A stretch of DNA of 64,000 nt from an uncultured Mucilaginibacter sp. (GTDB lineage Bacteria; Bacteroidota; Bacteroidia; Sphingobacteriales; Sphingobacteriaceae): NCBI RefSeq assembly GCF_937859865.1, contig NZ_CALMAT010000092.1, positions 46,198 through 110,197 of the forward strand, in the 5' to 3' direction. The notes below the pieces were generated by a model. It saw nothing but the letters and a program-made list of their open reading frames with translations, ran no database searches and had not been told where the DNA came from. Shown piece by piece: positions 4,996 to 60,229 of this stretch. Position numbers and translations under genes: made by a program. Each line of letters starts with the position of its first letter. The first letter of the stretch is position 1.

Positions 4996-5004
4996 ACAAA
5001 AAAG

Positions 5005-5038
5005 CGATACTGTTTTTATGCCGATAAAAACAGTATCG
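5005..5038. repeat. compact palindromic DRM pair (ACAG variant); hairpin between convergent genes
   Basis: cgatactgtttttat-gccg-ataaaaacagtatcg forms a 15-bp perfect stem. Confidence 0.9.
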
Positions 5039-5063
5039 CGTAATTGAATAAAAGAAGTTTTTC

Positions 5064-9894: not shown

Positions 9895-9960
9895 CGGAAT
9901 AATATTAGAAAAGCCAAAGATAGATTATTGCGGTAAAAGATTCAGTTGGTAGTTTGAGTT

Positions 9961-9985
9961 GATACTTCTTTTATCGGTATAAATT
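9961..9985 (-). repeat. DRM, reverse; left arm of the motif-terminator-motif composite
   Basis: gatacttcttttatcggtataaatt. Confidence 0.9.
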
Positions 9986-9998
9986 ATGTGAAACAAAA

Positions 9999-10026
9999 AA
10001 GCCTCCTGAAACAAATCAGGAGGCTT
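9999..10026 (-). terminator. rho-independent terminator of the symporter gene
   Basis: aagcctcctga-aacaaa-tcaggaggctt; on the minus strand the stem is followed by ttttttg. Confidence 0.8.
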
Positions 10027-10053
10027 AAAATTTATGCCGATAAAAGAAGTATC
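10027..10053 (+). repeat. DRM, forward; right arm of the composite
   Basis: aaaatttatgccgataaaagaagtatc; complementary to 9961-9985 at 24 of 25 positions. Confidence 0.9.
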
Positions 10054-10055
10054 TG

Positions 10056-11955: not shown

Positions 11956-13569
11956 CTATACGCCAAGCAGCAATCTTGCCGGGTCTTCCAGCAATTGTTT
12001 TACGCGGACTAAGAAACTTACCGATTCTCGTCCGTCCACAATCCGGTGATCGTAGGACAAAGCCAGGTACATCATTGGGCGGATAACCACTTGCCCGTTT
12101 ACCGCCACTGGCCGCTCAATAATATTGTGCATCCCTAAAATAGCAGATTGCGGCGAATTGATAATCGGTGTAGATAACATCGAACCAAAAACACCGCCGT
12201 TGGTGATGGTAAAGGTTCCGCCAGTCATTTCATCAATCGTTAATTTGCTTTCGCGCGCTTTGCCAGCCAGTACCACAATCGCTTTTTCAATTTCTGCCAA
12301 ACTCATGGCATCAGCATTGCGAATGATCGGCACAACCAAACCTTTTGGCGCAGAAACCGCGATGGAAATATCGGCAAAATCGTTGTAAACTACTTCTTCG
12401 CCTTCGATGCGTGCGCCAACTGCCGGCCAATCTTTCAAAGCTTCGGTTACGGCTTTCGTAAAAAACGACATAAAGCCTAAACCAACACCGTACTTTTCTT
12501 TGAATTTATCCTTGTATTTAGAACGTAACTCCATGATCGGCTGCATATCTACCTCGTTAAAAGTAGTGAGCATGGCCGTTTCATTTTTTACAGAAACCAA
12601 TCGTTTAGCAACTGTTTTGCGCAGTGATGACATTTTCTCACGACGTTCTCCCCTGCTTCCGGCAACTGCTGGCTGTGCCTGAACAACAGGTTTTGCCTGG
12701 GCCGGCGCAACTGGTTTGCTTTCTGTTTTTGCAACTGGTTTTGGGGCTTCTGCTTTTAAGGCGTCTTCTTTCGTGATCCTTCCGGCAACACCGTTTCCGT
12801 TGATGTTTTTCGGATCTAATCCTCTTTCAGCCAAAATTTTTGCTGCCGCTGGCGAAGGAACGCCTGAAGCATACGTTTTAGGTTGATTGGCACCATCGGC
12901 AGAAATTGCTGCATGTTCCTCTACTTCTTTTACCGGTGTTTTTTCAGTTTGCGGTGCACCGGCACCGGCTTTAATTTTAGCAACCAAAGTGCCGATTGGC
13001 AAAACATCGCCTTCTTTAACCAAAGTTTGAAGCGTTCCTGCACTTTCGGCGTTCAGTTCAAATGTAGCTTTGTCTGATTCCAGTTCGGCAATCGGCTCGT
13101 CCATTTCTACCTGCTCGCCGTCTTTTTTAATCCAATTGGTCAACGTAACTTCTTGAATGGATTCGCCAACCGGCGGAATATGGATTTCAATTTCTGTGGA
13201 AGCTGATGTTTCTGCCTTTGCAGGTTCCGCTTTCGGTGCTACTGCTGTTTCCGCAGCTACCGTTTTGGTTGTGTCTGCTGATGCTTCTTTTACCGATACT
13301 TTTTCGGCAACAGGTGCGGCAACGGTTTCGCCATCACCAGAATCAATGCTGCAAACCACAGCGCCAATTGCCAGTACATCGCCTTCTTTGGCAGTGGTCC
13401 GAAGTGTTCCGGCTGCTTCGGCAGTTAATTCAAACGTAGCTTTGTCTGATTCCAGTTCGGCAATCACATCATCCATTTCTACATGGTCACCATCATTTTT
13501 TACCCAGTTTGATAAGGTAACTTCAGAAATGGATTCGCCCACCGGCGGAACTTTAATCTCTAAACTCAT
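11956..13569 (-). CDS. sucB: dihydrolipoyllysine-residue succinyltransferase (2-oxoglutarate dehydrogenase E2) with two lipoyl domains
   Basis: Two [11 protein letters not shown] lipoyl-attachment motifs, a PSBD region and a C-terminal catalytic DHRIVDG. The ATG at 13569 (MSLEIKVPP) is preferred over the track start. Confidence 0.9.
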
Positions 13570-16542: not shown

Positions 16543-16568
16543 AATGCTTCTTTTGTCGGCAAAAATTT
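16543..16568 (-). repeat. DRM, reverse
   Basis: aatgcttcttttgtcggcaaaaattt; 129 nt upstream of the sucA ATG. Confidence 0.8.
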
Positions 16569-16600
16569 GGGTTGTGGTTTTGGTGGATGGTTTTATGGGT

Positions 16601-16625
16601 GATGCTTCTTTTATCGGTATAAATT
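16601..16625 (-). repeat. DRM, reverse (direct repeat of the previous copy, 58 nt away)
   Basis: gatgcttcttttatcggtataaatt. Confidence 0.85.
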
Positions 16626-17292: not shown

Positions 17293-18897
17293 CTACAACT
17301 CATCAACCTTACTTTTATAAACTGCCGCCTGTTCCAAAATCTTTTCCAAATCATCCGGTTTTAAACGGTGCAGATTGCCATAAATCATTTTTAAGCGCTG
17401 GTTATTAGCAAGCAAATGTTCGTTCCGGAAGAAAAAATCCCAATACAAACTGTTGTAGGGGCATGCTTTTTCGCCATACTTTTTTTTAGGGTCGTAAAAA
17501 CAGTTGCCGCAATAATTGCTCATTTTGTTGATGTAGGCCGCCGAAGCCACATACGGTTTTGTGCCAACGATACCGCCATCGGCAAACTGGCTCATGCCGT
17601 GCGTGTTGGGCAATTGCACCCATTGCATGGCATCAATGTAAACGCCCAAATACCAATCATCCACCTCGTGCGGATTTGTACCCGAAAGCAGGGCGAAATT
17701 GCCGATCACCATCAATCGCTGGATGTGGTGCGCCCAGGCCAAATCCAACGATTGGCCGATGCAATGTTTTAAACAGTTCATTTTGGTTTCGCCGGTGTAA
17801 AACCATTGCGGTAGTTTTGCCCGGTGGTTGAAGAAATTCTTCTCCGCGAAGTCCGGCATTTTGGCCCAATACAAACCGCGCATGTATTCGCGCCAGCCCA
17901 AAATTTGCCGTGTAAAACCTTCTATTTGCGGTAAACTGATTTCTTTTTGGTTTTGCTGCCAGGTTAAAATTGCTTGGTAGATGACTTCTTTTGGCGAGAT
18001 CAATTTAACATTCAACGCAAACGATAAGCGCGAATGAAAAAGCGATTTATGTTCCTGCAACATCGCATCTTCGTAAGTTCCAAAATGCGGCAACAGGTTT
18101 TGGCAGAAGTAATCAATCAGCTTTAAACCTTCTTTCCGGGAAAGCGGAAGAGCAACTTTTCCGGCTTCTACATTTCCAAAATAAGGAACATTGAGGCGGT
18201 CAATCATGCTTTTGATCTCGCTTAAATCATGTTCAAAAACCAAAGGTTCGGGCAAAGAAACTTTATGGTCGAACTTGTTCCGGTTGTCATGGTCGAAGTT
18301 CCACTGGCCGCCAATGGGCTCGTTTCCGTTCATCAACAGCTCGTGCTTTTGCCGCATGTGCCGGTAAAAGCTCTCCATGATCAATTGGTTTTTGCCAGAG
18401 AAAAAATCGCCCACTTCTTCCCGCGAGGTAAAAAAATGTTCGGTATCGTAAACTTTGGTGGCGATGGTTAAAGATTTGCAAAACGTTTTCAGTTGCTCGT
18501 CCAGCCGATATTCGTCCGGCAGCAAATATTCAAATTGTTCAATGCTTCTTTTATCTATGATTTTTTGAAGGTTGCCGTTTAACGTTTGCTCGTTTTCCGG
18601 ATCATCCAATTTGAGGTAAATAATTTCGTGCCCGGCTTTTTCCAACTGAAAAGCAAAGTTGCGCATGGCCGCAAAAAACGCCAGGATTTTTTGGATGTGG
18701 TGCTTTACATACGTCTGTTCCTGCATCATTTCCATCAGCACATAAACCGTTTCAGGTTCTTGCTGCTGAAACCAGGAATGTGTACTGATGAGCTGATCGC
18801 CCAAAATTAATCGTAAACTTTTCAATGATTTATAAACTACTTTATCATACTGCTTGTTCAAAGCAAAATCTGTTTGAAGTCTGCACTGTTCAATCAA
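17293..18897 (-). CDS. FeS-BCP / (6-4)-photolyase-like cryptochrome/photolyase family protein (COG3046, PhrB/CryB type)
   Basis: LRLILGDQL N-terminus and a C-terminal Cys set (NCLKHC, YCGNCFYDPKKKYGEKACPYN) like the 4Fe-4S ligands of PhrB/CryB. Start uncertain: the track start is TTG and there is no in-frame ATG near the conserved N-terminus. Confidence 0.8.
   Translation of the reverse strand: MIEQCRLQTDFALNKQYDKVVYKSLKSLRLILGDQLISTHSWFQQQEPETVYVLMEMMQEQTYVKHHIQKILAFFAAMRNFAFQLEKAGHEIIYLKLDDPENEQTLNGNLQKIIDKRSIEQFEYLLPDEYRLDEQLKTFCKSLTIATKVYDTEHFFTSREEVGDFFSGKNQLIMESFYRHMRQKHELLMNGNEPIGGQWNFDHDNRNKFDHKVSLPEPLVFEHDLSEIKSMIDRLNVPYFGNVEAGKVALPLSRKEGLKLIDYFCQNLLPHFGTYEDAMLQEHKSLFHSRLSFALNVKLISPKEVIYQAILTWQQNQKEISLPQIEGFTRQILGWREYMRGLYWAKMPDFAEKNFFNHRAKLPQWFYTGETKMNCLKHCIGQSLDLAWAHHIQRLMVIGNFALLSGTNPHEVDDWYLGVYIDAMQWVQLPNTHGMSQFADGGIVGTKPYVASAAYINKMSNYCGNCFYDPKKKYGEKACPYNSLYWDFFFRNEHLLANNQRLKMIYGNLHRLKPDDLEKILEQAAVYKSKVDEL
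18541..18560 (-). repeat. DRM core inside a CDS (FeS-BCP photolyase)
   Basis: aatgcttcttttatctatga; on the gene strand it encodes IIDKRSI. Confidence 0.6.
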
Positions 18898-22228: not shown

Positions 22229-23665
22229 CTAAAAAATACTCGCATTCTTATCCGTCAATTTCTGCCATTTAGGTTCGATAACCAACTTCGGGTAATCGCG
22301 CCCCAATTGGATGCCATAAACAGCTAATTCAGAAGGTGTTAAAAAAAATGGTGTATGAATTTGCTTGCCGGAAATACCGCTTAACTCTGGCACCCAAACC
22401 TTTACGTATTGCCCTTTCGGGTCAATTTCTCCGGCTTGCTTAACTACATTTAAAGCCCGGTTTTCCTTCGAATCATTGCCTACACCGGCAATGGAAGCCC
22501 AATTGCCCCAATTGGTTGCCGGGCTGTAATCAATTAGTTTTTCTTCAAAATAAGCAGCGCCGCAAGTCCAGTTTACTTGCAAATCCTTCGCTAAAAAGCT
22601 GGCCGCATTGTACCTGCCGCGGATGCTGGTATAACCTGTTGCGTTGATTTCGCGCATTACGGCATCAATAAAAGGAACGCCGGTTTGCCCGGTTTTCCAT
22701 TTTTCAAAAAGTTCGTCCTGGTTGGCAGCTTCCGGCGGGGCCTGGCCTTTAAAGCCTTCTTTCTGAAAAAACTGGTCGCCATGCTTTTTAAACATAAACC
22801 GGTAATAATCCCGCCACAGCAGCTCCAGCACAATGGCATGGGTTGTCGCGTTGCTGCCATGCAGTTTTTCGTACTGCTGCACTTCCCAATAAATTTGCCG
22901 GGGCGAAATACAGCCCATCGACAACCAAACCGACATGGTATTGGCAAAATCGGCACCAACCTGTGCGGCTTTTTCCTGATTTTCTGCCTTAGAAAAATTA
23001 TGCAAGCGTTTTAAACCTTCCGATTCTCCGCCTACAAAACGCATTACGGCACGTTCATCATCAAAAGGTTCGGTCAAACCTAAGTCGGCCAAAGTCGGGA
23101 TTTCGCCTGCATCGGCAATTTCCGGCGTGGTTATTTTTTCGGGAGAAACGGCACAACGCCGAACCTGACTATCGCGTTCTACTTTTTTGCGGAAAACAGC
23201 AAAAGCATCCGGGATATCTTTGATCGGGAACGGCAAATCTTCTTTGTTGTACAGCGTGTGGCCGATAAAATGCTTCAGATTCAGTTTCTGTTTCCACAAC
23301 GCAGCTTCTACTTTGGCCGAAATACCGGTTTCTTCAAAAGCCACTTCGCGGTGGTGATAAACTTCGGAAACCTGATATTGCTGCGCCAGTTCGGGAATGA
23401 TCACAGCCGGATCGCCAACGCGGATTAGCAATTCTCCGCCTAAATTTTTTAATGTCTGACGCAAATCCGCCACAGATTCGTTGATAAAACGTGCCCTGAA
23501 GTTCCCTGTTTTTTGTGTGCCAAAAGAAGTATTGCGGTAATAAAACGGGTCAAAACAATAAACCGGCAAAACAGTGTCTGCCTTGTTCACGGCCTCTGTT
23601 AAAACCTCATTGTCCTGAACCCGAAGATCGTTTCTAAACCAAACTAAAATCGTTTTGCCGCTCAT
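22229..23665 (-). CDS. DASH-family cryptochrome (ssDNA photolyase type)
   Basis: ILVWFRNDLRVQDNEVL N-terminus, FAD-binding C-terminal domain (WRDYYRF, GWMSNRGR-like TSIRGRYNAASFL) and a length typical of Cry-DASH. Confidence 0.85.
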   Translation of the reverse strand: MSGKTILVWFRNDLRVQDNEVLTEAVNKADTVLPVYCFDPFYYRNTSFGTQKTGNFRARFINESVADLRQTLKNLGGELLIRVGDPAVIIPELAQQYQVSEVYHHREVAFEETGISAKVEAALWKQKLNLKHFIGHTLYNKEDLPFPIKDIPDAFAVFRKKVERDSQVRRCAVSPEKITTPEIADAGEIPTLADLGLTEPFDDERAVMRFVGGESEGLKRLHNFSKAENQEKAAQVGADFANTMSVWLSMGCISPRQIYWEVQQYEKLHGSNATTHAIVLELLWRDYYRFMFKKHGDQFFQKEGFKGQAPPEAANQDELFEKWKTGQTGVPFIDAVMREINATGYTSIRGRYNAASFLAKDLQVNWTCGAAYFEEKLIDYSPATNWGNWASIAGVGNDSKENRALNVVKQAGEIDPKGQYVKVWVPELSGISGKQIHTPFFLTPSELAVYGIQLGRDYPKLVIEPKWQKLTDKNASIF

Positions 23666-28941: not shown

Positions 28942-29010
28942 GCCTGTAACATTACCCGTTTATTTTAGACTAATGGAAACACTTTTTCAATCAGGTTTTC
29001 ATAATTAAGG

Positions 29011-29168
29011 GCCTGTTTAAATTTCTATCAGTAAAAGTTTCCAATGCTTCTTTTATGCCTATAAATTCTGTTTTTAAATGATTGGCCGATACAAAAAGTA
29101 TAATAAACCAATGATTTTTAGGGGATAAAAGAAGCATTGAAAATATATTGAATAAAATTTAAACAGGC
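29011..29168. mobile_element. MITE-like ~158-bp element (copy A) with 14-bp terminal inverted repeats and an internal inverted DRM pair
   Basis: TIRs are gcctgtttaaattt (29011-29024) and aaatttaaacaggc (29155-29168). Internal DRM reverse copy at 29043-29067 and forward copy at 29113-29138. About 135 bp align with copy B at roughly 85-90 percent identity by eye. Confidence 0.5.
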
Positions 29169-29184
29169 TCTAAATAAAAAAACT

Positions 29185-29210
29185 AATTTTTAGGCGATAA
29201 AAGAAGCATT
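29185..29210 (+). repeat. DRM, forward
   Basis: aatttttaggcgataaaagaagcatt; 97 nt upstream of the TetR ATG at 29307. Confidence 0.85.
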
Positions 29211-29306
29211 GCCGTAAAAGCTGAAATAATAGGGACAATGTAAATAAAAAATAAAATGAAAAGGAAACTTTGGAACCTAAAAATGTTTCTTTAGTTTTGA
29301 CTTATC

Positions 29307-32530: not shown

Positions 32531-32675
32531 ACTTTTATCGTTAAAATTTACAATGCTTCTTTTATGCCAGTAAATTCTGTTTTTAAATGTTGGACCTTAC
32601 AAAAAGTATAATAAACCAATGATTTTTATGTGATAAAAGAAGCATAGAAATAAACTGAATAAAATTTAAACAGGC
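32531..32675. repeat. MITE-like element copy B (left TIR missing), inside the efflux operon between the MFP and RND genes
   Basis: acaatgcttcttttatgccagtaaattctgtttttaaatgt...gatttttatgtgataaaagaagcata...aaatttaaacaggc aligns with 29041-29168. Confidence 0.7.
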
Positions 32676-32705
32676 TCTTAATATATTTTACCACTTGATC
32701 TGTTA

Positions 32706-35700: not shown

Positions 35701-36131
35701 GGATCATCGCATTGGCAGGCGTAGTGGTACGGAACGGGATTTTGTTGGTTGAGTTTACCGATATGCTGATAGAGCAAGGCACCAACGTGCATGATGCCGT
35801 GGTAGAAGCCGGCCATACCCGGATGACACCGGTACTGTTAACTGCCACTGCCGCTATCTTAGGTTTAATACCTTTGGCCGTAGGTTTAAATATTGATTTT
35901 GTTGGCTTGTTTACCCACTTCCAACCGCATATTTACTTTGGTGGCGACAACGTTGCCTTTTGGGGACCGCTTGCTTGGACCATGATCTTCGGTTTAGGCT
36001 TTGCAACCATCATCACCCTGATCCTGGTTCCGTGCATGTACCTTATCCGCGTAAACCTAAAAAACAGGTTGTTTGGCAAAAAAGAAAAAGTGGAAATAAA
36101 ACACCCGGAATTGGAAGCCGTGGAAGCGTAA
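32706..36131 (+). CDS. efflux RND transporter permease (AcrB/AcrD/AcrF family)
   Basis: 1141 aa with 12-TM RND architecture (GIVVDDAIVVIEN, GVVVRNGILLVEF). Confidence 0.95.
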   Translation: MMKDLKKEFAPSSWAIDNKTAIYVLIFLITVLGLISYNNLPKENFPDIAQSKVFVTTTFAGQSPQNIENLVTRQIEKQLKSLKGLKKVTSNSVQNVSIITAEFQANIKIKDAKIDVKDAVDKAKQDLPQNDDNLKESVISDINVADLPILYINISGDYDLKRLKEYADLLKDEIEGYKEISKVDEVGALTPEIQVNVDLNKMAAAQVSFGDVIQAIGSENILTTAGTVKTDGVRRSIDIKQDFKNAAEVADMAIRNPKGQTVYLRDIAEIKDAFLEQESYARLKTNDNPKFKNVITLNVSKRAGENLIQASDKINELIKLKEKTVFPKGLNITVTGDQSDKTRTTLNDLINTIIIGFILVTLILMFFMGTTNAIFVALSVPLSCFIAFLVMPAIGFTLNMIVLFSFLLALGIVVDDAIVVIENTHRIFDNGKVPIKEAAKMAAGEVFLPVFSGTMTTLAPFIPLAFWNSLIGHFMFFLPITLIITLLASLVVAYIMNPVFAVDFMKAHVEGEHDHPKFDKGVKRTLIYLAIATAVGYFINIGFGNFMVVMIVLYLFNHFFLLKVIDRFQKNVWPRFQAWYAKWLERAVHRPVTVLLGTFGLFVLAIVLMVVLGKTPVFFPSGDPNFAYVYITMPIGTDQATTNEITKKLEQRVAQVVEPDKNIVSSIISNVTKGVTDPTDEDQGDYENKGKITVAFVEFGKRNGKDTKKVLTNIRNAVQGIPGVKIAVAQENSGPPVQKDISIEIIGDNLDTLVKTSNRLKNFIAKQNIAGIENLTADVQNDKPEIVFDIDRERANREGLNTAQISQALGTAVFGAKAGDFRNTKEDDYQIKVRALQDQRGNIDEIRNMKITYRDMGSGGIIRQVPISAFTDVRYTDTYSNIKRKQQRRVLTLGSSVIKPYNANEVNANILKAIDNFKKPDDVIIRQGGGQEDQLEAVTFLGSALATSFGLILIILMIQFNSIGKTFIIISEIFFSIIGVLLGVSIFGMTMAIVMTGIGIIALAGVVVRNGILLVEFTDMLIEQGTNVHDAVVEAGHTRMTPVLLTATAAILGLIPLAVGLNIDFVGLFTHFQPHIYFGGDNVAFWGPLAWTMIFGLGFATIITLILVPCMYLIRVNLKNRLFGKKEKVEIKHPELEAVEA

Positions 36132-36134
36132 TCC

Positions 36135-36180
36135 AATTTTTACCGGATAAAAGAAGTATGCTTATTTTATCCGGTAAAAA
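36135..36180. repeat. DRM forward copy overlapping a degenerate reverse copy (tail-to-tail palindrome)
   Basis: aatttttaccggataaaagaagtatgcttattttatccggtaaaaa, with ccggataaaa/ttttatccgg arms. Confidence 0.75.
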
Positions 36181-36211
36181 CCCGCGTTACTGTTTGTAAC
36201 GCGGGTTTTTT
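36176..36211 (+). terminator. rho-independent terminator of the RND operon
   Basis: acccgcgttac-tgtttg-taacgcgggt stem followed by tttttgg. Confidence 0.8.
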
Positions 36212-36217
36212 GGTTTT

Positions 36218-36246
36218 TGTCATGCCGAAACAAGTTCGGCATGACA
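36218..36246. repeat. GTCATGCCGAA palindrome (12-bp stem)
   Basis: tgtcatgccgaa-acaag-ttcggcatgaca. Confidence 0.8.
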
Positions 36247-36254
36247 GCGCGAGA

Positions 36255-36331
36255 CATACTTCTTTTACCAACAAAAAATCCGCGTTGCCACAAACAGCAA
36301 CGCGGATTTTATACCGATAAAAACAGTATCC
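36255..36331. repeat. motif-terminator-motif composite (DRM reverse, katE terminator, DRM forward ACAG variant)
   Basis: catacttcttttaccaac-aaaaaatccgcgttgccacaaacagcaacgcggatttt-ataccgataaaaacagtatcc; same architecture as 9961-10053. Confidence 0.75.
36273..36310 (-). terminator. rho-independent terminator of katE
   Basis: The minus strand reads aaaatccgcgttgc-tgtttgtg-gcaacgcggatttttt. The stem sequence is a near copy of the plus-strand terminator at 36176-36211. Confidence 0.8.
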
Positions 36332-38516: not shown

Positions 38517-38722
38517 TTTCGTTTTAGAATTAGTGGGCTTTGTTTGGAGGAAGTTTAGGCAAAGTGTTTTTTAAAAAAATGAGGTTTAGAAACCCTACCT
38601 TCTTATCTTAGGATTGCCTTTTATAAGAAGTTATTTCCTTTTGGTTTTGTTTCTATTCAAATAATTAATATTTGTTCAACAAGGCATTAACTGAAATTGC
38701 TGTAACCGGAAAATGAAAAGCA

Positions 38723-38748
38723 AATGCTTCTTTTAGCACATAAAATTT
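38723..38748 (-). repeat. DRM, reverse
   Basis: aatgcttcttttagcacataaaattt; 207 nt upstream of the katE ATG. Confidence 0.8.
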
Positions 38749-38776
38749 AGTGCTCGGCAACCGTAAAATTTAAAGT

Positions 38777-38803
38777 AAAAAAATATAGGGTAAAAGAAGC
38801 ATT
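38777..38803 (+). repeat. DRM, forward
   Basis: aaaaaaatatagggtaaaagaagcatt. Confidence 0.7.
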
Positions 38804-38821
38804 ACAGCCGAAGAACCAACC

Positions 38822-40665: not shown

Positions 40666-41955
40666 AACTTGTTTTGGTTCCGCCGCGATTTAAGGCTGAC
40701 CGATAACGCCGGTTTTTACCACGCGCTCAAAAGTGGCAAACCGGTTTTACCAATGTTTATTTTTGATACCGAAATTCTGGACAAGCTGGAAGACAAAGAT
40801 GATTCGCGCGTTACTTTTATCCACCAATCGCTTGTTAACATGAACGAGGAACTGAAGCGGTTGGGCAGTTCGATGCTCGTTAAAAATACATCGCCAAAAG
40901 AAGCATTTGCCGAAATTTTGAATGAATATGCAGTTGATACTGTTTTTACCAACCACGATTACGAACCGTACGCCAAAGAGCGCGATACAGAAATCGCCCA
41001 AATTTTAGCAGCTAAAAACAGCAAATTTTGCACTTATAAAGACCATGTTATTTTCGACCGGAACGAAGTGATGAAACCCGACGGTAGCCCGTACACTGTT
41101 TTTACCCCGTATTCGCGCAAATGGAAAGAAAAGTTGAACGATTTTTACCTAAAGCCTTATCCGGTAGAAAAATACCTGCAAAACCTGTATCAAACCCAGC
41201 TTACTTTCCCTACATTACATGATATTGGTTTTGAAAAAAGTTCGATCCAAGTCCCTAAAAACGAATACAAATCCATCATTGCCGATTATGCCAAAACGCG
41301 AGATTTCCCGGGGCTGGAAGGCACTTCACGGATCAGCGTCCATTTGCGGTTTGGCACGGTCAGCATTCGCGAACTGGCAACTGAAGCCAATAAACAAGTA
41401 GAAAAAACCTGGCTGAATGAACTGATCTGGCGAGATTTTTATGCCATGATTATCTGGCATTTCCCGCAAACAGCCAACCATGCTTACAAACCCGAATTTG
41501 ATAAAATCCAATGGCGCAACAACGAGCAGGAGTTTGAAGCCTGGTGCAAAGGCGAAACCGGCTACCCGATTGTGGATGCCGGGATGCGGCAATTGCATGC
41601 TTTGGGCTGGATGCACAACCGCGTGCGCATGGTTGCGGCCAGTTTTTTATGCAAGCATTTATTGATTGACTGGCGTTGGGGCGAACATTATTTTGCCCGA
41701 AAACTGCTGGATTATGATTTGGCCAGCAATGTAGGCGGCTGGCAATGGGCCGCAGGGACTGGTGCCGATGCATCTCCGTTTTTCAGGATATTTAGCCCAG
41801 AAGCACAAACCAAACGCTTCGACCCAAAATTTGAATACATTAAAAAATGGGTGCCCGAATATCTTGATCCATTTAAATATCCAGCACGAATCGTAGATCA
41901 TAAAGAAGCGCGGGAACGATGTTTGGCAGCATTTAAAAAAGCACTGAACGGATAA
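40645..41955 (+). CDS. phrB: deoxyribodipyrimidine (CPD) photolyase, class I
   Basis: LFWFRRDLRLTDNAGFYHAL, WRDFY, GWMHNRVRMVAASFL and GGWQWAAGTG motifs. Confidence 0.9.
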   Translation: MPDKKSINLFWFRRDLRLTDNAGFYHALKSGKPVLPMFIFDTEILDKLEDKDDSRVTFIHQSLVNMNEELKRLGSSMLVKNTSPKEAFAEILNEYAVDTVFTNHDYEPYAKERDTEIAQILAAKNSKFCTYKDHVIFDRNEVMKPDGSPYTVFTPYSRKWKEKLNDFYLKPYPVEKYLQNLYQTQLTFPTLHDIGFEKSSIQVPKNEYKSIIADYAKTRDFPGLEGTSRISVHLRFGTVSIRELATEANKQVEKTWLNELIWRDFYAMIIWHFPQTANHAYKPEFDKIQWRNNEQEFEAWCKGETGYPIVDAGMRQLHALGWMHNRVRMVAASFLCKHLLIDWRWGEHYFARKLLDYDLASNVGGWQWAAGTGADASPFFRIFSPEAQTKRFDPKFEYIKKWVPEYLDPFKYPARIVDHKEARERCLAAFKKALNG

Positions 41956-45692: not shown

Positions 45693-46187
45693 ATGAAAAA
45701 AATTTGTCTTTGTTTGTTGTTCATATCCGTCGTTTTATTTTACAGCAAAAAGGCCGGCGCGCAATCGTACCAAACGGCTGCCGGGCTGCGCTTTAGTTAC
45801 GAAAGCGGCATTTCCGTCAAATATTTTACAGACCCAACAACAGCTTTGGAAGGTGTTTTGGGTTTCCGTACCAAAGGCGTGGTGTTTACGGGTTTAATTG
45901 AAAAACACCAACCGGCTTTTAACGTAGCCGAACTGAAGTTCTATTATGGTTTTGGCGGGCACGTTGGCGGCGTGGGCAGCGGCGGTTATCGGGTTTATAA
46001 TGGCGATTACAAAGTTTATAACAATTCTTCCCTATTGTTGGGTGCTGATGGCGTGATCGGTTTAGAATATGTAATCCCGGATTCGCCAATTGCGGTTAGT
46101 GTTGATCTTGACCCACGCATCGAAATTTTCCGCGGGCCGATTTTTAATTTGACACCAAGCCTGGGCATCAAATATGCTTTTAAATAA
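45693..46187 (+). CDS. small outer-membrane beta-barrel protein (hypothetical)
   Basis: Signal peptide ending AGAQ, alternating beta-strand pattern and an aromatic C-terminal residue region (GIKYAFK). Confidence 0.5.
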   Translation: MKKICLCLLFISVVLFYSKKAGAQSYQTAAGLRFSYESGISVKYFTDPTTALEGVLGFRTKGVVFTGLIEKHQPAFNVAELKFYYGFGGHVGGVGSGGYRVYNGDYKVYNNSSLLLGADGVIGLEYVIPDSPIAVSVDLDPRIEIFRGPIFNLTPSLGIKYAFK

Positions 46188-46250
46188 AATTTATGCCGAT
46201 AAAAGAAGCATTGCAAAATTTATCGAATGCTTCTTTTATCGGCATAAATT
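46186..46250. repeat. perfect inverted DRM pair (25-bp stem, 13-nt loop) between convergent genes
   Basis: aatttatgccgataaaagaagcatt (46188-46212), gcaaaatttatcg, aatgcttcttttatcggcataaatt (46226-46250). Confidence 0.95.
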
Positions 46251-46271
46251 CATTGGCCAAAATCCCTCCTT

Positions 46272-48128
46272 TTACATCACCCGCACCTTTAAAAAACTTG
46301 GTTCTGTTTTAGAAGTATAAACTTTCATGGTTGCTTTTTGAAAATCAGTAGGCGTAGCTTGCATAACATTCATAAACTTTTGCGGGTTGCGGTCAATCAA
46401 AGGAAACCAAGTGCTTTGGATTTGCACCATCACCCGATGGCCTTTTTTAAAGGTGTGCAACACATCCTGCAACTCAAAATTAACCGGCGTAACTTTTCCG
46501 GGAACAAAAGGCTCCGGTTTAGAAAAACTGTTGCGGTATTTGCCGCGCATAGCCTCGCTCCGCACCATTTGCTCGTAATGCGACAATTGCACATTTTGCC
46601 CGGTAAAAGAAGTATTCTTGGTGGAATCAGGATAAACATCAATCACTTTCACTACCCAATCGGCATCGGTTCCCGTAGTCGAAACTTTTAAATTGGCCCA
46701 GATATTTCCGGCCAAAGTTAAATCATCACTTAAAATATCCGTTTGATAAGTTAAAACATCGGGTCGGGTTGTTACAAAACGCTGGTCGGCCGTCATGTAT
46801 TCGCGGTCCATGTCCATCGAAGTGTTGCTGAGAAAAGGGACAGGTTTGTTCGGGTCAGAAATATAGCTGTTAAAAGAAGCATTGGTTTTTGGCGGATCGA
46901 AAGAAAGTTTTCCGTTGGACAGGAAATACAAGTTTTTCTCCTGCGCTTCTTTTGCTGGCCATGTTTTATAGGTTTTCCATTGGTTGGAACCCGTTTCGAA
47001 AACAGAAACCGGCTGCAAATCCGTCTGTGTTCCTTTTAAATAATGACTGAAGAATTTAAACTCAATATTTTCCCGATAGTAAGCTGCCGTTGCCGAACCA
47101 AAACCAACATCGCCCAAATGATCGCCATTGCCTCTCGCCCAACCGCCGTGAACCCATGGGCCCATCGCAAAGTAAGCAGGCGTTGTCGGGTTATTTTTCA
47201 CAATAGTTTTATACGTGTTGATGGCACCGTACAAATCTTCCGCATCGTACCAGCCGCCTGTTACCAAAACTGCGGTTTTGATGTTGGTTAAATGCGGCAA
47301 TACGTTTCGGTCTTTCCAGTGTTGGTCGTAATCCGGGTGGTCCAGCATTTCGTTCCACAAACGGATTGTATCCTTATAATACAATGTGTTCGAGTTTTTC
47401 ATCGTGGCCATCCGCAGGAAAAAATCGTAGCCATCTTCTGTTCCGGCGTTAAATTCTGTTGCCTGACGTTGCGTCGGCTTGTCATCCTGCCGATTGGTAA
47501 AACCTGGATAAAAACCGAAGTTGGCCACCAGCATAAAAGCACCATTGTGGAAAGCATCATCGCGGTACAAATCCGCAATTGGTGCCTGCGGAGAAGCGGC
47601 AACCAGTGCTGGGTGCCGACTTAACAAAGCGGTTGTAGTATAAAACCCGGGATAAGAAATCCCCCAAACGCCAACTTTTCCATTGTTATTGGGAACATTT
47701 TTCAGCAGCCAGTCGATCGTATCATAAGTATCCGTGCTTTCGTCCACATCGTTTTTGGTGGGATGCACATCCTTTTCCGGTGTCATTTCCTCATAAATGC
47801 CTTCGCTCATCCACCGGCCGCGCACATCCTGGTAAACAAAAATATAACCATCATGCAAAAACAATGGCGAAGGGCCTAAGGAACGCCGGTACTGATCGGC
47901 TCCGTACGGTGCAACGCTGTACGGCGTACGGTCCATCATCAGCGGATATTTTTTGGATTTATCTTTCGGCACATAAACTGAAGTAAACAGCTTTTTGCCG
48001 TCGCGCATCGGGATTTGGTATTCGAATTTCTGGTAATTGGCTTTTACATACACAGAATCGGCATTTACTTGGGCGGAAACTTGCCTAAAAAACAGGCATA
48101 AAAGAAGCATCGCGGCTATTTTTTTCAT
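46272..48128 (-). CDS. CocE/NonD-family hydrolase (X-Pro dipeptidyl-peptidase S15-like)
   Basis: DRTPYS, VGVWGISYPGFY nucleophile elbow and a C-terminal jelly-roll domain. The ATG at 48128 gives the signal peptide MKKIAAMLLLCLFF. Confidence 0.85.
   Translation of the reverse strand: MKKIAAMLLLCLFFRQVSAQVNADSVYVKANYQKFEYQIPMRDGKKLFTSVYVPKDKSKKYPLMMDRTPYSVAPYGADQYRRSLGPSPLFLHDGYIFVYQDVRGRWMSEGIYEEMTPEKDVHPTKNDVDESTDTYDTIDWLLKNVPNNNGKVGVWGISYPGFYTTTALLSRHPALVAASPQAPIADLYRDDAFHNGAFMLVANFGFYPGFTNRQDDKPTQRQATEFNAGTEDGYDFFLRMATMKNSNTLYYKDTIRLWNEMLDHPDYDQHWKDRNVLPHLTNIKTAVLVTGGWYDAEDLYGAINTYKTIVKNNPTTPAYFAMGPWVHGGWARGNGDHLGDVGFGSATAAYYRENIEFKFFSHYLKGTQTDLQPVSVFETGSNQWKTYKTWPAKEAQEKNLYFLSNGKLSFDPPKTNASFNSYISDPNKPVPFLSNTSMDMDREYMTADQRFVTTRPDVLTYQTDILSDDLTLAGNIWANLKVSTTGTDADWVVKVIDVYPDSTKNTSFTGQNVQLSHYEQMVRSEAMRGKYRNSFSKPEPFVPGKVTPVNFELQDVLHTFKKGHRVMVQIQSTWFPLIDRNPQKFMNVMQATPTDFQKATMKVYTSKTEPSFLKVRVM
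46591..46617 (+). repeat. near-full DRM inside the CocE/NonD CDS (antisense)
   Basis: acattttgcccggtaaaagaagtattc; on the gene strand it encodes KNTSFTGQN. Confidence 0.65.
46861..46883 (+). repeat. DRM core inside the CocE/NonD CDS (antisense)
   Basis: atatagctgttaaaagaagcatt; on the gene strand it encodes NASFNSY. Confidence 0.6.
48087..48111 (+). repeat. DRM inside the CocE/NonD signal-peptide codons; 33 nt upstream of the divergent MNT gene
   Basis: aaaaaacaggcataaaagaagcatc; on the gene strand it encodes AMLLLCLFF. Confidence 0.65.
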
Positions 48129-49145: not shown

Positions 49146-49179
49146 AAAAAAGCCTCTGCCAAAATTGGCAAAGGCTTTT
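49146..49179 (-). terminator. rho-independent terminator of pgk
   Basis: The minus strand reads aaaagcctttgcc-aatttt-ggcagaggctttttt. Confidence 0.75.
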
Positions 49180-49211
49180 CATACTGTTTTTATGCCGATA
49201 AAAACAGCATC
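49180..49211. repeat. compact palindromic DRM pair (ACAG variant) overlapping the pgk stop
   Basis: catactgtttttat-gccg-ataaaaacagcatc. Confidence 0.9.
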
Positions 49212-50400
49212 AGTCATTGATCGCTTTTACGCCCGGCAACTCCTTGCCTTCCATGTATTCCAGCAACGCGCCGCCGCCGGTAGAAACATAACTCACTTTT
49301 GAAGTCAGGTTGAACTTAGAGATCGCTGCCGCCGAATCGCCGCCGCCAATCAAAGAGAACGCGCCGTTTTGGGTTGCTTTTACAATAGCTTCGGCAACAG
49401 CTTTGGTCCCTTTTTCAAAATTATCCATTTCGAAAACGCCCATCGGCCCGTTCCATAAAATGGTTTTTGATGCTTCAATTACTTTGGAAAACGCTTCCAC
49501 AGATTCTGGGCCGATATCCAAGCCCATCCAGTTGTCTTCAATTTGGCCAGTTTTGGCTATTTTGGTGTTCGCATCGTTGGCAAACTTATCTGCCACAACA
49601 TTATCAATCGGTAAAAAAAGTTGAACGCCTTTTTCTTTTGCTTTTTGCTGCAAACTGGTGGCTAAATCCAATTTGTCCATTTCCACCAAAGAAGTACCGA
49701 TATTGCCGCCGTCGGCTTTTGCAAAAGTATAAGCCATGCCGCCGCCGATGATCAAATTGTCCACTTTATCCAGCAAACGCTCAATCAGTTTTATTTTGTC
49801 GGAAACTTTTGAACCGCCCATAATTGCTGTGAATGGCCTTGCCGGGTTGTTCAGCACTTTTTCTGCATTTTCCAGTTCCGAAGCCATTAAGTAGCCGAAG
49901 TATTTGGCATCCGGGAAAAACTGGGCAATTACTGATGTGGAAGCGTGTGCACGATGCGCCGTTCCGAAAGCATCGTTTACATAAACATTGCCCAGAGCGG
50001 CCAGTTTTTTGGCAAATTCGACATCGCCTTTTTCTTCTTCTTTGTAAAAACGCAAATTTTCGAGCAATAAAACTTCGCCCGGCTGCAAAGCTTTTGCTTT
50101 GTCAATCGCTTCCTGGCCAATGCAATCATTCGCAAATTCTACCTGCTGGCCCAACAAATCTGATAAATGCGGAACAATGTGTTTTAAAGAAAACTCTTCT
50201 GTCGGGCCATTTTTTGGGCGTCCCAAATGCGACATCAGAATAATTGCGCCGCCATCTTTCAAAATCTTTTTGATGGTTGGCAAAGCGGCCGTAATGCGGT
50301 TGTCATCTGTAATATTAAAATCTTTATCCAGCGGAACATTAAAATCTACGCGGATCAAAACTTTTTTGTTGGCAAAGTTGGCCTGGTCAATTGTTTTCAT
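49210..50400 (-). CDS. pgk: phosphoglycerate kinase
   Basis: Full-length Pgk ([21 protein letters not shown]). Confidence 0.97.
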
Positions 50401-50474
50401 AGAAATGGGTTAAGGTTGGAAAAGTACAAAATTGATGTTAAGTTTAGCTACGCTGATAACAACGCCTTTTTGCC

Positions 50475-50506
50475 GATGCTGTTTTTATGCCGGTAAAAAC
50501 AGTATC
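50475..50506. repeat. compact palindromic DRM pair (ACAG variant) overlapping the GNAT stop
   Basis: gatgctgtttttat-gccg-gtaaaaacagtatc. Confidence 0.9.
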
Positions 50507-50939
50507 AGCGGATTTTAAGGTACATCATGTGGTGCGGGCCGATGCCGGGAACGTCAAATTCATCCGAAATAATTTCAAAACCGATGCCTTTATAAAAGTT
50601 AAGCGCAACTTTGCGTGCGTTGCACCATAAGTAATTGATCTGTTGGCCGCGTAAATAAACAATGGCAAAATTGAGCAGTTGGTTGCCTTTTCCTTTTCCC
50701 TGAAAAGCCGGAACTGTGGCCATGCCGCGCAACTGATAACCTTTGCCGATGTGGCCTTCCACATTTTGCGGATGGAACGAGGCAATGGATGTGAGCAAAT
50801 TTTCCTCAAAATTCCCCAGATGGAAAGCGCCTTCGTTTAGATCGGATGGAAAACGGCATTCGTCCAAAGTTAATTTTCCTTCGCGCAGCACATCATTTCT
50901 GATGGCCAATACTTCTTTTACCGGTATAAATTTGATCAT
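50505..50939 (-). CDS. GNAT-family N-acetyltransferase
   Basis: QLRGMATVPAFQGKGKGNQLL acetyl-CoA-binding motif. Confidence 0.85.
   Translation of the reverse strand: MIKFIPVKEVLAIRNDVLREGKLTLDECRFPSDLNEGAFHLGNFEENLLTSIASFHPQNVEGHIGKGYQLRGMATVPAFQGKGKGNQLLNFAIVYLRGQQINYLWCNARKVALNFYKGIGFEIISDEFDVPGIGPHHMMYLKIR
50908..50933 (-). repeat. full-length DRM forming codons 3-11 of the GNAT gene
   Basis: The gene strand reads ATGatcaaatttataccggtaaaagaagtatt, encoding MIKFIPVKEVL. Confidence 0.8.
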
Positions 50940-50972: not shown

Positions 50973-50999
50973 AAATGCTGTTTTTACGCCTGAAAAGTT
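50973..50999 (-). repeat. DRM, reverse (ACAG variant)
   Basis: aaatgctgtttttacgcctgaaaagtt; 34 nt upstream of the GNAT ATG. Confidence 0.7.
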
Positions 51000-51056
51000 C
51001 AAATATAACAGAACCGGGTTGTTTCTTCGGAACGAAAAAAGTATTGGCACCACACC

Positions 51057-51082
51057 AATTTTTATGTGGTAAAAGAAGCATC
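51057..51082 (+). repeat. DRM, forward
   Basis: aatttttatgtggtaaaagaagcatc; 80 nt upstream of the ATG at 51162. Confidence 0.85.
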
Positions 51083-51161
51083 CGCTGGTTTTTGGTTTTG
51101 CTGAAACCGCTTTGGCATTTTTATTGGCTATTCCTCAACAGAACAACAAAACGATAAAGCT

Positions 51162-57840: not shown

Positions 57841-57867
57841 TAAAAATACTATGCTAAAAGAAGCATC
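57841..57867 (+). repeat. DRM covering the UpxY start codon and first five codons
   Basis: taaaaatactATGctaaaagaagcatc encodes MLKEAS. Confidence 0.7.
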
Positions 57868-58357
57868 GCCAAAATGGTACCCGGTTTATACACATTCGAG
57901 AGCCGAAAAACAGGCTTACGAGTTGCTCCTGCAAAAAGGGGTCGAAGCTTATTTGCCCTTGCAAAAAACGCTGAAACAATGGAGCGACCGCAAAAAATGG
58001 GTAAGCGAACCGCTGTTTAAATCGTACTTGTTTGTGCGCATTTTTCAAAAACAGCAAACCGAGGTTTTGATGACGAAAGGCATTGCGCGTTTCTTGTACC
58101 AATCGGGGAAGATTGCCAATATGCCCGACCAGCAGATCAACGAAATACAAATGCTTTTGTCAACAGAAATGGATTTGGAGGTTACATCCGACCATATTTC
58201 GCCGGGAGAAAAAGTAGTGATCAAAGCCGGTCCGCTGATTGGTTTGACAGGCGAAATGGTAAGTTACAAATCGCAAAAACAGTTAATTATCCGCTTAGAA
58301 AACTTAGGGCAATCCATTTTGGTAAATGCCCACGCTGCTTTGGTAGATAAACTGTAA
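57851..58357 (+). CDS. UpxY-family (NusG-like) transcription antiterminator
   Basis: WYPVYTHSRAEKQAYELL NGN motif and a C-terminal KOW-like GEKVVIKAGPLIGLTGEMV. Confidence 0.8.
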   Translation: MLKEASPKWYPVYTHSRAEKQAYELLLQKGVEAYLPLQKTLKQWSDRKKWVSEPLFKSYLFVRIFQKQQTEVLMTKGIARFLYQSGKIANMPDQQINEIQMLLSTEMDLEVTSDHISPGEKVVIKAGPLIGLTGEMVSYKSQKQLIIRLENLGQSILVNAHAALVDKL

Positions 58358-58447: not shown

Positions 58448-60229
58448 ATGTGCCGGATAGCTGGTTTAGTTTCTTTAAATATTCATGCCGACGAAAAACG
58501 CAACTTAATTAGCCGGATGTGTTTGGCCATGCAACACGGCGGGCCAGATGGCAAAGGCTTATTTTTAGGTGGTAAAAACAGCATTTGCTTTGGGCACCGA
58601 AGGCTGGCTTTGATTGACCTTTCTGCCGATGCCAACCAGCCGATGACAGATGCAACTGAAAATTATACCATCACTTTTAACGGTGAAATTTATAATTACC
58701 GGGAGCTAAAAATTGAACTGCAAAGTCTGGGTTATCAATTTAAAACACAATCGGACACCGAAGTTATTTTGGCTGCTTATGAAGTTTGGGGCACAAATGC
58801 TTTTCATCGTTTTAACGGCATGTTTGCCTTTGCTTTATTTGATAAACGTTTAAACAAGGTTTTTTTAGTGCGCGACCAAAGCGGTATGAAACCTTTGTAT
58901 TATCAAATTAAAAACAAGGAGCTGCTTTTTGCTTCGGAGATCCGTGCTTTTCGTGCTATTGATATTACCCAAAATCATCCGGATTGGAAAATTTGGCTTT
59001 TAGCTTTTGGCTTTGTCCCGGAACCGATGACGATTTTAAATGATGTATTGATGTTGCCAAAAGGCAGTTTGCTGGAATGGGACATTGTGGCAGAAACTTG
59101 TAAAATCCGCACTTATCTTCAACCCAAAACTTCGCCTTTAATTACAAATTTAGAAGAAGCCAAACAGTTGATCCGACAAAAGTTTCAAGAATCCGTAAAC
59201 CGACATTTAATTGCAGATGCACCCATTGGCGTGTTTTTAAGCGGCGGAATTGATTCGGGCATAGTTGCATTGGAAGCATCCAAGTTTAAAGGTGCCGGTT
59301 TACAAACACTTTCTTTAACGTTTGATGATGCTGGTTTTGATGAATCCAAATTTCAGCAAATCATGGTGAAAAAGTTGGGCAGCAAGCATTCTTCTGAACA
59401 AATTACCGAACAAACTTTTCAAGAACAATCAACTGAGATATTAAAAGCGATGGACCAGCCATCCGCCGATGGAATTAACACTTGGCTGGTTGCCAAATTA
59501 GCAAAGGCACAAGGTTTAAAAGCCGTACTTTCTGGTTTAGGCGGCGATGAATTGTTTGGCGGCTATCCATCATTTAAAAGAATTCGGTTTTTAAAAAAGT
59601 TAAGCCAGTTGTTACCGAAATCCGCTTTAAAATTGTTTCAATATTTGCCAAATGCTAGTTATCAAAAATTAGCTTATTTATCACTTCGATGCCATCTTGG
59701 ATATTATTTGGCTTTGCGTGGTTACTTTGCACCGAAACAAATTGCAGCCATCTTAAATATACCGGTAAAAGAAGTATGGCAAAAAATTTCCCGATTTAAA
59801 CATCTAACAAATCAGGAAAAAAACACTGATCTGTTTACTGCAAATTTGGAACAGGATATTTACATGAAAAACCAGTTGCTGCGCGATGCCGATGCGATGA
59901 GCATGCAGCACGGCATCGAAATTAGGATGCCTTTTTTAGATTATGAATTTTTAATTGGTGTCAATAGCATCCATCCAAACTTACGCTTTGATAAAAAGTT
60001 GGCCAAAGGTTTATTGATCAAAAGTTACCAGGATTTATTGCCTGAAGAAATTTGGAACCGTCAAAAGATGGGCTTTTCTTTTCCGTTGCAAAAATGGCTG
60101 AAAAAATCTGCGTTAACGGATAAGCTTCAAATCAGCAAAAACAAAAGTATTGCTTCTTTTGCACAAGGTTTTTTGGTGGATAAGGTGCATTGGTCTAAAA
60201 TAATTGCTTTGCATTTTGTTGTTAAATAA
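58448..60229 (+). CDS. asparagine synthase (glutamine-hydrolysing) family amidotransferase
   Basis: MCRIAG Ntn-Cys2, GATase-II domain and SGGIDS PP-loop. Confidence 0.9.
   Translation: MCRIAGLVSLNIHADEKRNLISRMCLAMQHGGPDGKGLFLGGKNSICFGHRRLALIDLSADANQPMTDATENYTITFNGEIYNYRELKIELQSLGYQFKTQSDTEVILAAYEVWGTNAFHRFNGMFAFALFDKRLNKVFLVRDQSGMKPLYYQIKNKELLFASEIRAFRAIDITQNHPDWKIWLLAFGFVPEPMTILNDVLMLPKGSLLEWDIVAETCKIRTYLQPKTSPLITNLEEAKQLIRQKFQESVNRHLIADAPIGVFLSGGIDSGIVALEASKFKGAGLQTLSLTFDDAGFDESKFQQIMVKKLGSKHSSEQITEQTFQEQSTEILKAMDQPSADGINTWLVAKLAKAQGLKAVLSGLGGDELFGGYPSFKRIRFLKKLSQLLPKSALKLFQYLPNASYQKLAYLSLRCHLGYYLALRGYFAPKQIAAILNIPVKEVWQKISRFKHLTNQEKNTDLFTANLEQDIYMKNQLLRDADAMSMQHGIEIRMPFLDYEFLIGVNSIHPNLRFDKKLAKGLLIKSYQDLLPEEIWNRQKMGFSFPLQKWLKKSALTDKLQISKNKSIASFAQGFLVDKVHWSKIIALHFVVK
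58561..58586 (+). repeat. full-length DRM (ACAG variant) inside the AsnB-like CDS
   Basis: atttttaggtggtaaaaacagcattt encodes LFLGGKNSI. Compare the intergenic copy at 29185 (aatttttaggcgataaaagaagcatt). Confidence 0.7.
59753..59778 (+). repeat. DRM inside the AsnB-like CDS
   Basis: ttaaatataccggtaaaagaagtatg encodes LNIPVKEVW. Its 19 nt ataccggtaaaagaagtat are identical to the GNAT copy. Confidence 0.75.

Follow-up and report, generated by a model that had tools for sequence, protein, structure and literature searches.

Introduction

Sequence-specific signals for DNA uptake are, to our knowledge, known only from the Neisseriaceae, as the DNA uptake sequence (DUS), and from the Pasteurellaceae, as the uptake signal sequence (USS), and we know of none described in the Bacteroidota. 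The cyanobacterial HIP1 (GCGATCGC) is another lineage-specific and hyper-abundant short motif, present in genes and spacers and maintained by selection. Here we describe a short motif with the core AAAA[GA][AC]AG[CT]AT in a 64-kb stretch of DNA from an uncultured Mucilaginibacter sp. (Bacteroidota, Sphingobacteriaceae). The whole of this stretch was analysed and is called the window below. It lies on a metagenome contig (ENA ERZ22826848, NODE_101, 112.5 kb).

The published hallmarks of DUS and USS are genic and intergenic copies, permissive sites, stop-avoiding reading frames, inverted repeats in terminators and dialects (bioRxiv 10.1101/2025.10.24.684340). Among the Bacteroidota, Riemerella columbina takes up its own DNA preferentially, and the only words found there were A-rich and of low complexity (PMC7965970). 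Repetitive extragenic palindromic (REP) elements are a different kind of short repeat, namely imperfect palindromes outside genes that carry a GTAG or CGTC tag (PMC3733652).

A first-pass annotation of the window had noticed that unrelated genes share strings of 19 and 17 nt, and had proposed that the DNA rather than the encoded peptide is selected or inserted, as with USS. We find that the strings belong to one motif with many copies in the window. By analogy with the described systems, they may be copies of a clade-specific, genome-wide double-stranded DNA recognition motif that has an uptake or self-recognition function of the DUS/USS type, a reading to which we give an even chance.

Results

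By k-mer counting and a pattern scan, the core occurs 69 times in the window, 36 times on the plus strand and 33 times on the minus strand. Its density is about 1.0 per kb, and the 12-mer alone makes up 1.3% of the DNA. The full core is an asymmetric 12-nt element, T-AAAA-(GA|AC)-AG-(C/T)-AT, which appears as GAAGYAT in 47 copies, ACAGYAT in 18 and other variants in 4. Upstream of it stand a G or R at 2–3 nt, 4–5 variable bases and, at a distance of about one helical turn, an AT-rich tract. The intergenic copies share a consensus of about 30 nt, C.rAtTTTTA-nnnn-GrTAAAAGAAGYAT.

The upstream tract is T-rich in 46 copies, A-rich in 16 and neither in 7, and the last two classes are commoner in coding sequences (CDS). 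With the core, the T-tract forms a weak TTTTTA/TAAAA dyad of 5–6 A:T pairs, which is missing from 16 or more copies. T-rich and A-rich tracts both occur, and therefore it is the AT-richness that is kept and not the hairpin potential, as in the flanks of USS. The spacing between copies is indistinguishable from random (coefficient of variation 0.94). A repeat search of the window found no longer repeat unit above about 42 nt, except for one duplicated spacer of about 150 nt. No Rfam family matched the motif at gathering thresholds, literature searches with the string returned unrelated primers only, and viral contigs gave 23 single matches at the chance level, none of them with the extended context.

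The strings noticed at first are exact in all four genes. The 19-mer ATACCGGTAAAAGAAGTAT lies at 50909-50927 on the minus strand in a GNAT gene (codons 5–11, MIKFIPVKEVL) and at 59759-59777 on the plus strand in an AsnB-like gene (residues 436–444, LNIPVKEVW). The 17-mer TGCTAAAAGAAGCATCG lies on the plus strand at 3488-3504 in the gene of a TonB-dependent receptor (VLKEAS) and at 57852-57868 at the start of an UpxY/NusG-like gene (MLKEAS), where the coordinates first given were 2 nt off. With at most 3 mismatches, the window holds 14 matches to the 19-mer against 0.03 expected and 26 matches to the 17-mer against 0.30 expected.

The copies collected by the first-pass annotation were thus real, although a small sample of a window-wide family with most copies intergenic. 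It had also missed that the motif reaches about 16–20 nt upstream of the core. The further peptides in its list (DKRSI, AKRSI, IKEAS, DASFT, NTSFT, NASFN and KFIAINEAS) all exist as conceptual translations, many of them in intergenic DNA. The 19-nt identity of the GNAT and AsnB copies needs no gene conversion between the two, an explanation that was considered, because each of the shared sub-variants (ATACCG, GGT and GTAT) is frequent in the set of 69.

Inside genes, the codon shuffle, the orthologue alignments and the retention agree that the enriched entity is the DNA string and not the peptide, as had been supposed. The codon-shuffling null model that had been proposed as a check was applied to 51 genes, each trimmed of its first 35 codons. 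Their interiors carry 19 cores, in comparison with 1.95 ± 1.27 (maximum 7 of 500 shuffles) when synonymous codons are shuffled with the proteins kept, and with 1.08 when the codon order is shuffled. The CDS copies use sense frame 2 (xKEAS, VKEVW), sense frame 0 (KRSI, KNSI) and antisense frame 1 (NTSF, NASF, DASF), and avoid the frame that reads TAA as a stop.

Another proposed check, that the motif-encoded peptides fall at poorly conserved sites, came out well for the GNAT, the photolyases and the S15 peptidase but not for AsnB, whose peptide is conserved in orthologues. Relative to the orthologues of motif-free Mucilaginibacter and Pedobacter, no indel is seen at the copies in either photolyase or in the S15 peptidase, and the residues there are variable. 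The IPVKEV site of the GNAT reads VAVEEI, TAEDIL, TAEETL or EVEEIL in four syntenic relatives, always at the same length. Positions 6–10 are also among the most variable of this GNAT family and free of gaps in 74 family representatives. Judged from these alignments, the GNAT copy arose recently and by substitution.

In AsnB, every orthologue down to 56% identity, including those of all motif-bearing lineages, keeps the peptide LNIPVKEVW, and the remoter homologues have LNLSINQV or LDTDSERV instead. The codons ATA CCG GTA AAA GAA GTA are common to five lineages, except for GTA to ATA in lineage L108 and ATA to ATG in lineage L110. By its alignment, the AsnB copy is old, and the constraint on the peptide is inseparable from that on the DNA there, because LNIPVKEVW itself is conserved across orthologues.

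Retention was scored wherever a copy could be compared with another lineage over 60 or more aligned nt per side, which gave 71 comparisons. The motif is kept in 37 of them, against 2.8 expected from the flank identity to the 11th power, and the other comparisons show substitutions only (28) or an indel of at least 3 nt (6). The nominal p of about 4e-33 overstates the significance because the comparisons are not phylogenetically independent, but the excess is still more than 10-fold. Between the window organism and M. arboris, the core positions are 89% identical and the distal flanks 77% (p = 0.004). Three species share the 16602 copy upstream of sucA without any change, in a spacer that is about 50–55% identical.

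The GAAG and ACAG variants swap at orthologous sites, and copy number, position and orientation all turn over in the spacers between species. By sequence comparison, the CDS copies are built by substitution, not insertion, and the differences at orthologous sites are mostly substitutions. The earlier idea of an inserted motif is not supported, as copies arise and decay by substitution.

The range of the motif was drawn from about 20–64 kb of each genome. In a SucA-based scan of species-representative genomes, the best 80 loci (Mucilaginibacter, Pedobacter, Sphingobacterium and other Bacteroidota, with M. arboris not among the loci listed) have 0–0.27 cores per kb, and the perfect 12-mer occurs at 0–0.04 per kb in the motif-free relatives. 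Closer relatives by SucA came from the protein database, namely M. arboris (92%) and an uncultured lineage (89%), followed by a gap to 79% or less. Core density is 0.70 per kb in M. arboris, 1.01 in the 89% lineage and 0.04 in a 79% lineage. Four more lineages, reached via AsnB orthologues and syntenic with the window at 48–64 kb, have 0.83, 0.73, 1.10 and 0.47 cores per kb.

Seven lineages including the window organism and M. arboris carry the motif, and the six besides the window organism have it at 0.47–1.10 per kb. It is confined to a small clade of soil Mucilaginibacter around M. arboris, with a sharp boundary between SucA identities of at least 89% and of 79%. The commonest variant is GAAGCAT in M. 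arboris (L082), GAAGTAT in L083 and ACAGCAT in L108, and the motif of L109 is more degenerate, yet 5–10-fold above the controls. These differences may represent a dialect series, or motif decay in an early-branching lineage.

In relation to genes, 38 of the 69 copies are intergenic, 3 lie across gene edges and 28 are in mechanically called open reading frames (ORFs), in a window that is about 12% non-coding. Copies 26904, 40654 and 48100 were counted in ORFs but truly lie upstream of the real start, and the intergenic share is 55–60%. The density is 11.2 per kb in convergent spacers, 5.3 in tandem ones, 3.1 in divergent ones and 0.48 in CDS. The orientation to the flanking genes is random (classes of 12, 12, 11 and 5). 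No strand skew appears in any 16-kb bin of the window, nor does a strong strand polarity of the Chi or KOPS kind.

The long conserved genes for sucA, the acrB-like protein and catalase have zero copies. The gene content is of ordinary core functions (SucAB, PGK, GAPDH, KdsA, catalase, photolyases, an RND pump and an exopolysaccharide (EPS) locus). Neither the window nor about 8 kb past its left edge, where only housekeeping genes lie, contains a transposase, an integrase or a Y1/RAYT gene. At copies 23949-23959 and 26904-26914, the 3′ end (…AGYAT+G) provides the downstream ATG start codon, of an SDR gene and an ABC1 kinase gene, respectively. Both start-codon copies are conserved in related species.

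Adjacent copies less than 150 nt apart make 18 pairs, of which 12 are inverted and several lie in 3′-3′ spacers (Table 1). The inverted pairs either fold into hairpins, at −9 to −67 kcal/mol, or flank canonical GC-rich terminators. Long hairpins are self-formed by the pairs at 5004-5039, 46183-46255, 49179-49212 and 50474-50507, and GC-rich terminator hairpins are bracketed at 9960-10054 and 36254-36331. One inverted pair only passed a simple terminator scan. The palindrome at 5004-5039 is terminator-like and located between convergent genes, and M. arboris keeps it with the same arms and a loop changed from GCCG to CTTG.

The duplicated intergenic segment of about 150 nt is present at 29031-29176 and 32540-32683 with 86–92% identity. 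One copy of it lies upstream of a TetR gene at 29307, the other upstream of the gene for the AcrB-like RND pump at 32706, and each has an inverted motif pair. There is an additional inverted repeat at 28997-29033 and 29146-29182. Two tandem ORFs of 205 aa (28324-28941 and 29307-29924) precede the OEP, adaptor and RND efflux genes. In M. arboris, the orthologous ORFs (L082 535-1152 and 1331-1948) both match Pfam TetR_N, and the window ORFs are assigned by this orthology. The two copies of the duplicated segment may serve as a common operator or promoter through which TetR controls the efflux operon.

Table 1. Motif copies and copy groups in the window; the remaining copies are given as the start of the 11-nt core with the strand
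Feature	Position	Strand	Remark
Named GNAT copy, extended motif caaatttataccggTAAAAGAAGTAT	50909..50935	-	codons 4-12, IPVKEV; confined to the window organism among 5 syntenic lineages
Named AsnB-like copy	59752..59777	+	LNIPVKEVW
Named TonB-dependent receptor copy	3488..3504	+	VLKEAS, A-tract class
Named UpxY/NusG-like start copy	57852..57868	+	MLKEAS; retained in 3/4 other lineages
Perfect palindrome, two overlapping ACAGTAT-variant copies (5007-, 5026+), then T-run	5004..5039	.	-17.7 kcal/mol
Inverted pair (9962-, 10042+) around canonical GC-rich terminator hairpin 9999-10026	9960..10054	.	-50.7 kcal/mol
Three intergenic copies (29044-, 29127+, 29199+) upstream of TetR gene	29042..29211	.	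in duplicated ~150-nt segment
Inverted pair (32553-, 32635+) upstream of AcrB-like gene	32551..32647	.	duplicate of 29042-29139
Three copies (36149+, 36256-, 36319+) alternating with three GC-rich hairpins, AcrB-like/catalase spacer	36131..36331	.	
Inverted pair (38724-, 38792+), intergenic	38722..38804	.	
Inverted pair (46201+, 46227-), 25-bp hairpin, between convergent genes	46183..46255	.	-34.8 kcal/mol
Palindromic pair (49181-, 49200+) directly 3′ of PGK stop codon	49179..49212	.	forms a long hairpin
Palindromic pair (50476-, 50495+) between GNAT and PGK	50474..50507	.	retained in 4 other lineages
Inverted pair (50975-, 51071+), divergent spacer	50973..51083	.	
SucB inter-domain linker copy, VKEAS, A-tract class	13281..13291	-	conserved in M. 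arboris and L083
Two tandem copies upstream of sucA (16544-, 16602-)	16544..16612	-	
DPRP gene copy	18542..18552	-	L083 orthologous site is ACAGCAT variant
Photolyase antisense copy, NTSF	23522..23532	+	indel-free, variable residues
Photolyase 2, two copies (40896+, 40937-)	40896..40947	.	second forces Y to F in otherwise invariant VYTNHDYE
S15 peptidase, two antisense copies (46605, 46872; NTSFT, NASFN)	46605..46882	+	indel-free
GAPDH copy, last codons	51635..51645	-	
AsnB-like gene, second copy, GKNSIC, ACAGCAT variant	58574..58584	+	
Remaining intergenic/gene-start copies	284-, 1673-, 2857+, 5609+, 8152+, 11889+, 19451+, 23949+		
Remaining intergenic/gene-start copies	25326-, 25441-, 26904+, 28254+, 31443-, 39676+, 40654+, 41967-		
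Remaining intergenic/gene-start copies	42093-, 42137-, 43714-, 45485-, 48100+, 52639-, 54679-, 60242-		
Remaining CDS copies	4781-, 7741-, 8472+, 17476-, 55914+, 61242+, 63161+, 63617+		

Some neighbouring features were seen along the way. In sucB, an internal 216-nt duplication (12963-13178 and 13335-13550, 75% identity) corresponds to two lipoyl domains and is ordinary. The PGK of L109 lies in two ORFs (553-1744) on a 2x-coverage contig, and the split is probably an assembly or frameshift error, not a pseudogene. M. arboris differs from the window organism by a toxin-antitoxin pair, DUF2683 and YoeB/ParE-like, between the SSF symporter gene and kdsA (L082 16482-16936). The window ORF 48144-48470, whose L108 counterpart matches Pfam NTP_transf_2/Polbeta, is followed by an NTase_sub_bind (HEPN-like) protein at 48461-48853. 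This two-gene module (48144-48853), present also in L108, looks like an MNT-HEPN toxin-antitoxin pair.

Discussion

The motif has its abundance, strand symmetry, distribution, substitution origin, retention, clade restriction and dialects as observed properties of the DNA. Of what characterizes uptake sequences, we found over-representation, strand balance, an excess in CDS at permissive frames and sites, a clade with dialects and orthologous retention. The likeness to USS that had been pointed out at first matches in genomic behaviour, and the analogy covers genomic behaviour alone. By this analogy, the recognising process would be DNA uptake. With slightly less than even confidence, we suggest that the motif is the first DNA uptake sequence outside the Proteobacteria, belonging to a naturally competent soil or bark clade of Mucilaginibacter with a putative receptor for TAAAA(GA|AC)AG(C/T)AT and the AT-tract.

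In such a mechanism, the competence machinery would include a DNA receptor, at the surface or in the periplasm, that prefers motif-bearing fragments, and conspecific DNA would then be preferentially taken up and recombined. The uptake bias, or selection for it, would drive the build-up of copies by point mutation where this is tolerated, that is, in intergenic DNA, at gene ends and at variable residues in permissive reading frames. The inverted pairs at gene ends may have been co-opted as terminator hairpins or be tolerated in them.

Several observations weigh against the uptake function. A literature search found no report of competence in the Sphingobacteriaceae or of natural transformation in any Mucilaginibacter. 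Competence, pilus and receptor genes (ComP or ComN minor pilin, type IV pilus, ComEC, DprA) are absent from the 64-kb window and about 8 kb beyond, the DNA covered by the search. In the variable EPS region, copies show no significant depletion (0.74 versus 0.93 per kb, p = 0.33), and so the prediction that foreign DNA lacks the motif is unconfirmed. In the synonymous-site test, pairwise codon identity is 0.72 in the motifs and 0.55 outside, a difference that is not significant (p = 0.18) in a test underpowered by its 10 codons. A generic terminator scan of the window gave 26 against 25 expected, with no overall enrichment. The partial dyad TTTTTA-nnnn-TAAAA of the intergenic copies also suits a dimeric DNA-binding protein of other function.

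Such a protein could be a clade-specific factor without an uptake role, whose sites are kept by selection chromosome-wide. It might be a nucleoid organiser or a repair or recombination cofactor, and the sites might be a strand-neutral 'self' marker for defence or recombination or a HIP1-like motif. The abundance, strand symmetry, CDS presence, retention and clade restriction fit this too, the partial dyad with the AT-tract resembles the sites of DNA-bending or dimeric proteins, and the genus has no competence evidence. We still consider it rather unlikely, as no nucleoid or repair system is known to have an asymmetric 12-nt site at 1 per kb together with inverted copies where genes end. The Mucilaginibacter motif is neither strand-polarised like the Chi- and KOPS-type markers nor a short perfect palindrome like HIP1. 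Its whole pattern, dialects and apparent terminator pairing included, is that documented for DUS and USS (bioRxiv 10.1101/2025.10.24.684340). The hairpins at gene ends could instead suggest a REP/REPIN-like element that is spread by RAYT or a similar single-stranded DNA enzyme and acts in termination or mRNA stability. This would suit the mostly intergenic location, the many inverted pairs with long hairpins, the short length, lineage specificity and high copy number, and the small TTTTTA/TAAAA dyad of intergenic copies. However, the 19 copies in CDS interiors against about 2 expected are indel-free where aligned, the 16 A-tract copies cannot form the hairpin, and the turnover is mainly by substitution (28 versus 6 indels). 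The GTAG or CGTC tag, the defining mark of the REP super-families, is also missing (PMC3733652). The window has neither a Y1 transposase nor a larger mobile unit. Overall, we regard such an element as improbable.

Even less probable is a signal at the level of RNA or transcription, namely an intrinsic terminator, a promoter element or a leader. The density does peak in 3′-3′ spacers, several pairs form strong hairpins, one of them with a T-run (5004-5039), and copies 23949 and 26904 overlap start codons. On the other hand, the orientation to genes is random and the CDS copies are on both strands, while the single copies are without a GC-rich stem or U-tract and have no Rfam match. The promoter consensus of the Bacteroidota is TTTG/TAnnTTTG. 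A promoter was rejected because of the random orientation and because the motif, by inspection, does not match this consensus. The probability that the pattern is due to chance, to a bias in composition or to selection on the peptides is practically negligible. The AsnB peptide LNIPVKEVW is indeed conserved among orthologues and the genome is A/T-rich, but shuffles give 0.03–2 copies against 14–69 seen and relatives of equal G+C content are without the motif. Moreover, most copies are non-coding, and those in CDS use three frames on both strands for unrelated peptides. Hence, chance and peptide selection are excluded by the shuffles and the motif-free controls.

If the motif serves DNA uptake, it would represent a third, independent origin of sequence-specific uptake, beyond the two proteobacterial families, and the origin of uptake signals and their receptors is an old open question. 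It would also imply species-selective exchange of genes in a phylum for which reports of uptake are limited to the non-specific or undefined 'self-preferring' kind. The culturable genus, with the M. arboris type strain, and the sharp phylogenetic boundary would permit a direct uptake test. The boundary would allow a search for the receptor by comparative genomics, as a gene gained at that node, and a test of the molecular-drive and selection models for motif accumulation. In practice, the motif could also help to make Mucilaginibacter more tractable genetically. If its function is not uptake, a conserved 12-mer at 1 per kb without a known reader is still an unexplained genome-wide signal of the Bacteroidota.

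Among the known systems, Chi and KOPS/AIMS are likewise over-represented oligomers, read on the chromosome as 'self' or orientation marks. Those are 5–8 nt long and strongly replication-polarised, whereas the present motif is at 36+/33− and balanced per 16-kb bin. HIP1 is similarly hyper-abundant and lineage-specific in genes and spacers, but it is an 8-nt perfect palindrome without a flanking tract, gene-end pairing or dialect pairs. REP and REPIN elements resemble the motif as high-copy, short, lineage-specific intergenic repeats that often make hairpin-forming inverted pairs. Unlike the motif, they are extragenic, tagged and spread by insertion; the motif is 10-fold enriched in genes and untagged, has hairpin-free copies and turns over by substitution.

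Closer to the motif is the USS of the Pasteurellaceae (AAGTGCGGT with AT-rich flanks). Both have a core and one or more helically spaced AT-rich tracts, about 30 nt when extended, and both are frequent in coding regions at poorly conserved residues and avoid stop frames. USS pairs occur in terminators, as some of the inverted pairs described here may do. The Mucilaginibacter motif differs in its unrelated sequence and larger intergenic share (55–60%), and its likeness is known from sequence alone. The DUS of the Neisseriaceae (GCCGTCTGAA and its dialects) has a ComP-type minor-pilin receptor, but no such receptor or competence phenotype is known for the Mucilaginibacter motif, which is unrelated in sequence, has an AT-tract flank, occurs in the Bacteroidota and lets two core variants, GAAG and ACAG, coexist in one genome. 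The features that it has in common with DUS are an asymmetric core of 10–12 nt that recurs about once per kb and on either strand, a majority of intergenic copies, CDS copies at permissive frames and sites, restriction to a family or clade with dialects, and accumulation by substitution. Inverted pairs are many in both, those of DUS in terminators and those of the Mucilaginibacter motif partly in terminator-like places. By these comparisons, it is best filed as an uptake-sequence-like motif in a new phylum, unrelated in sequence to DUS and USS.

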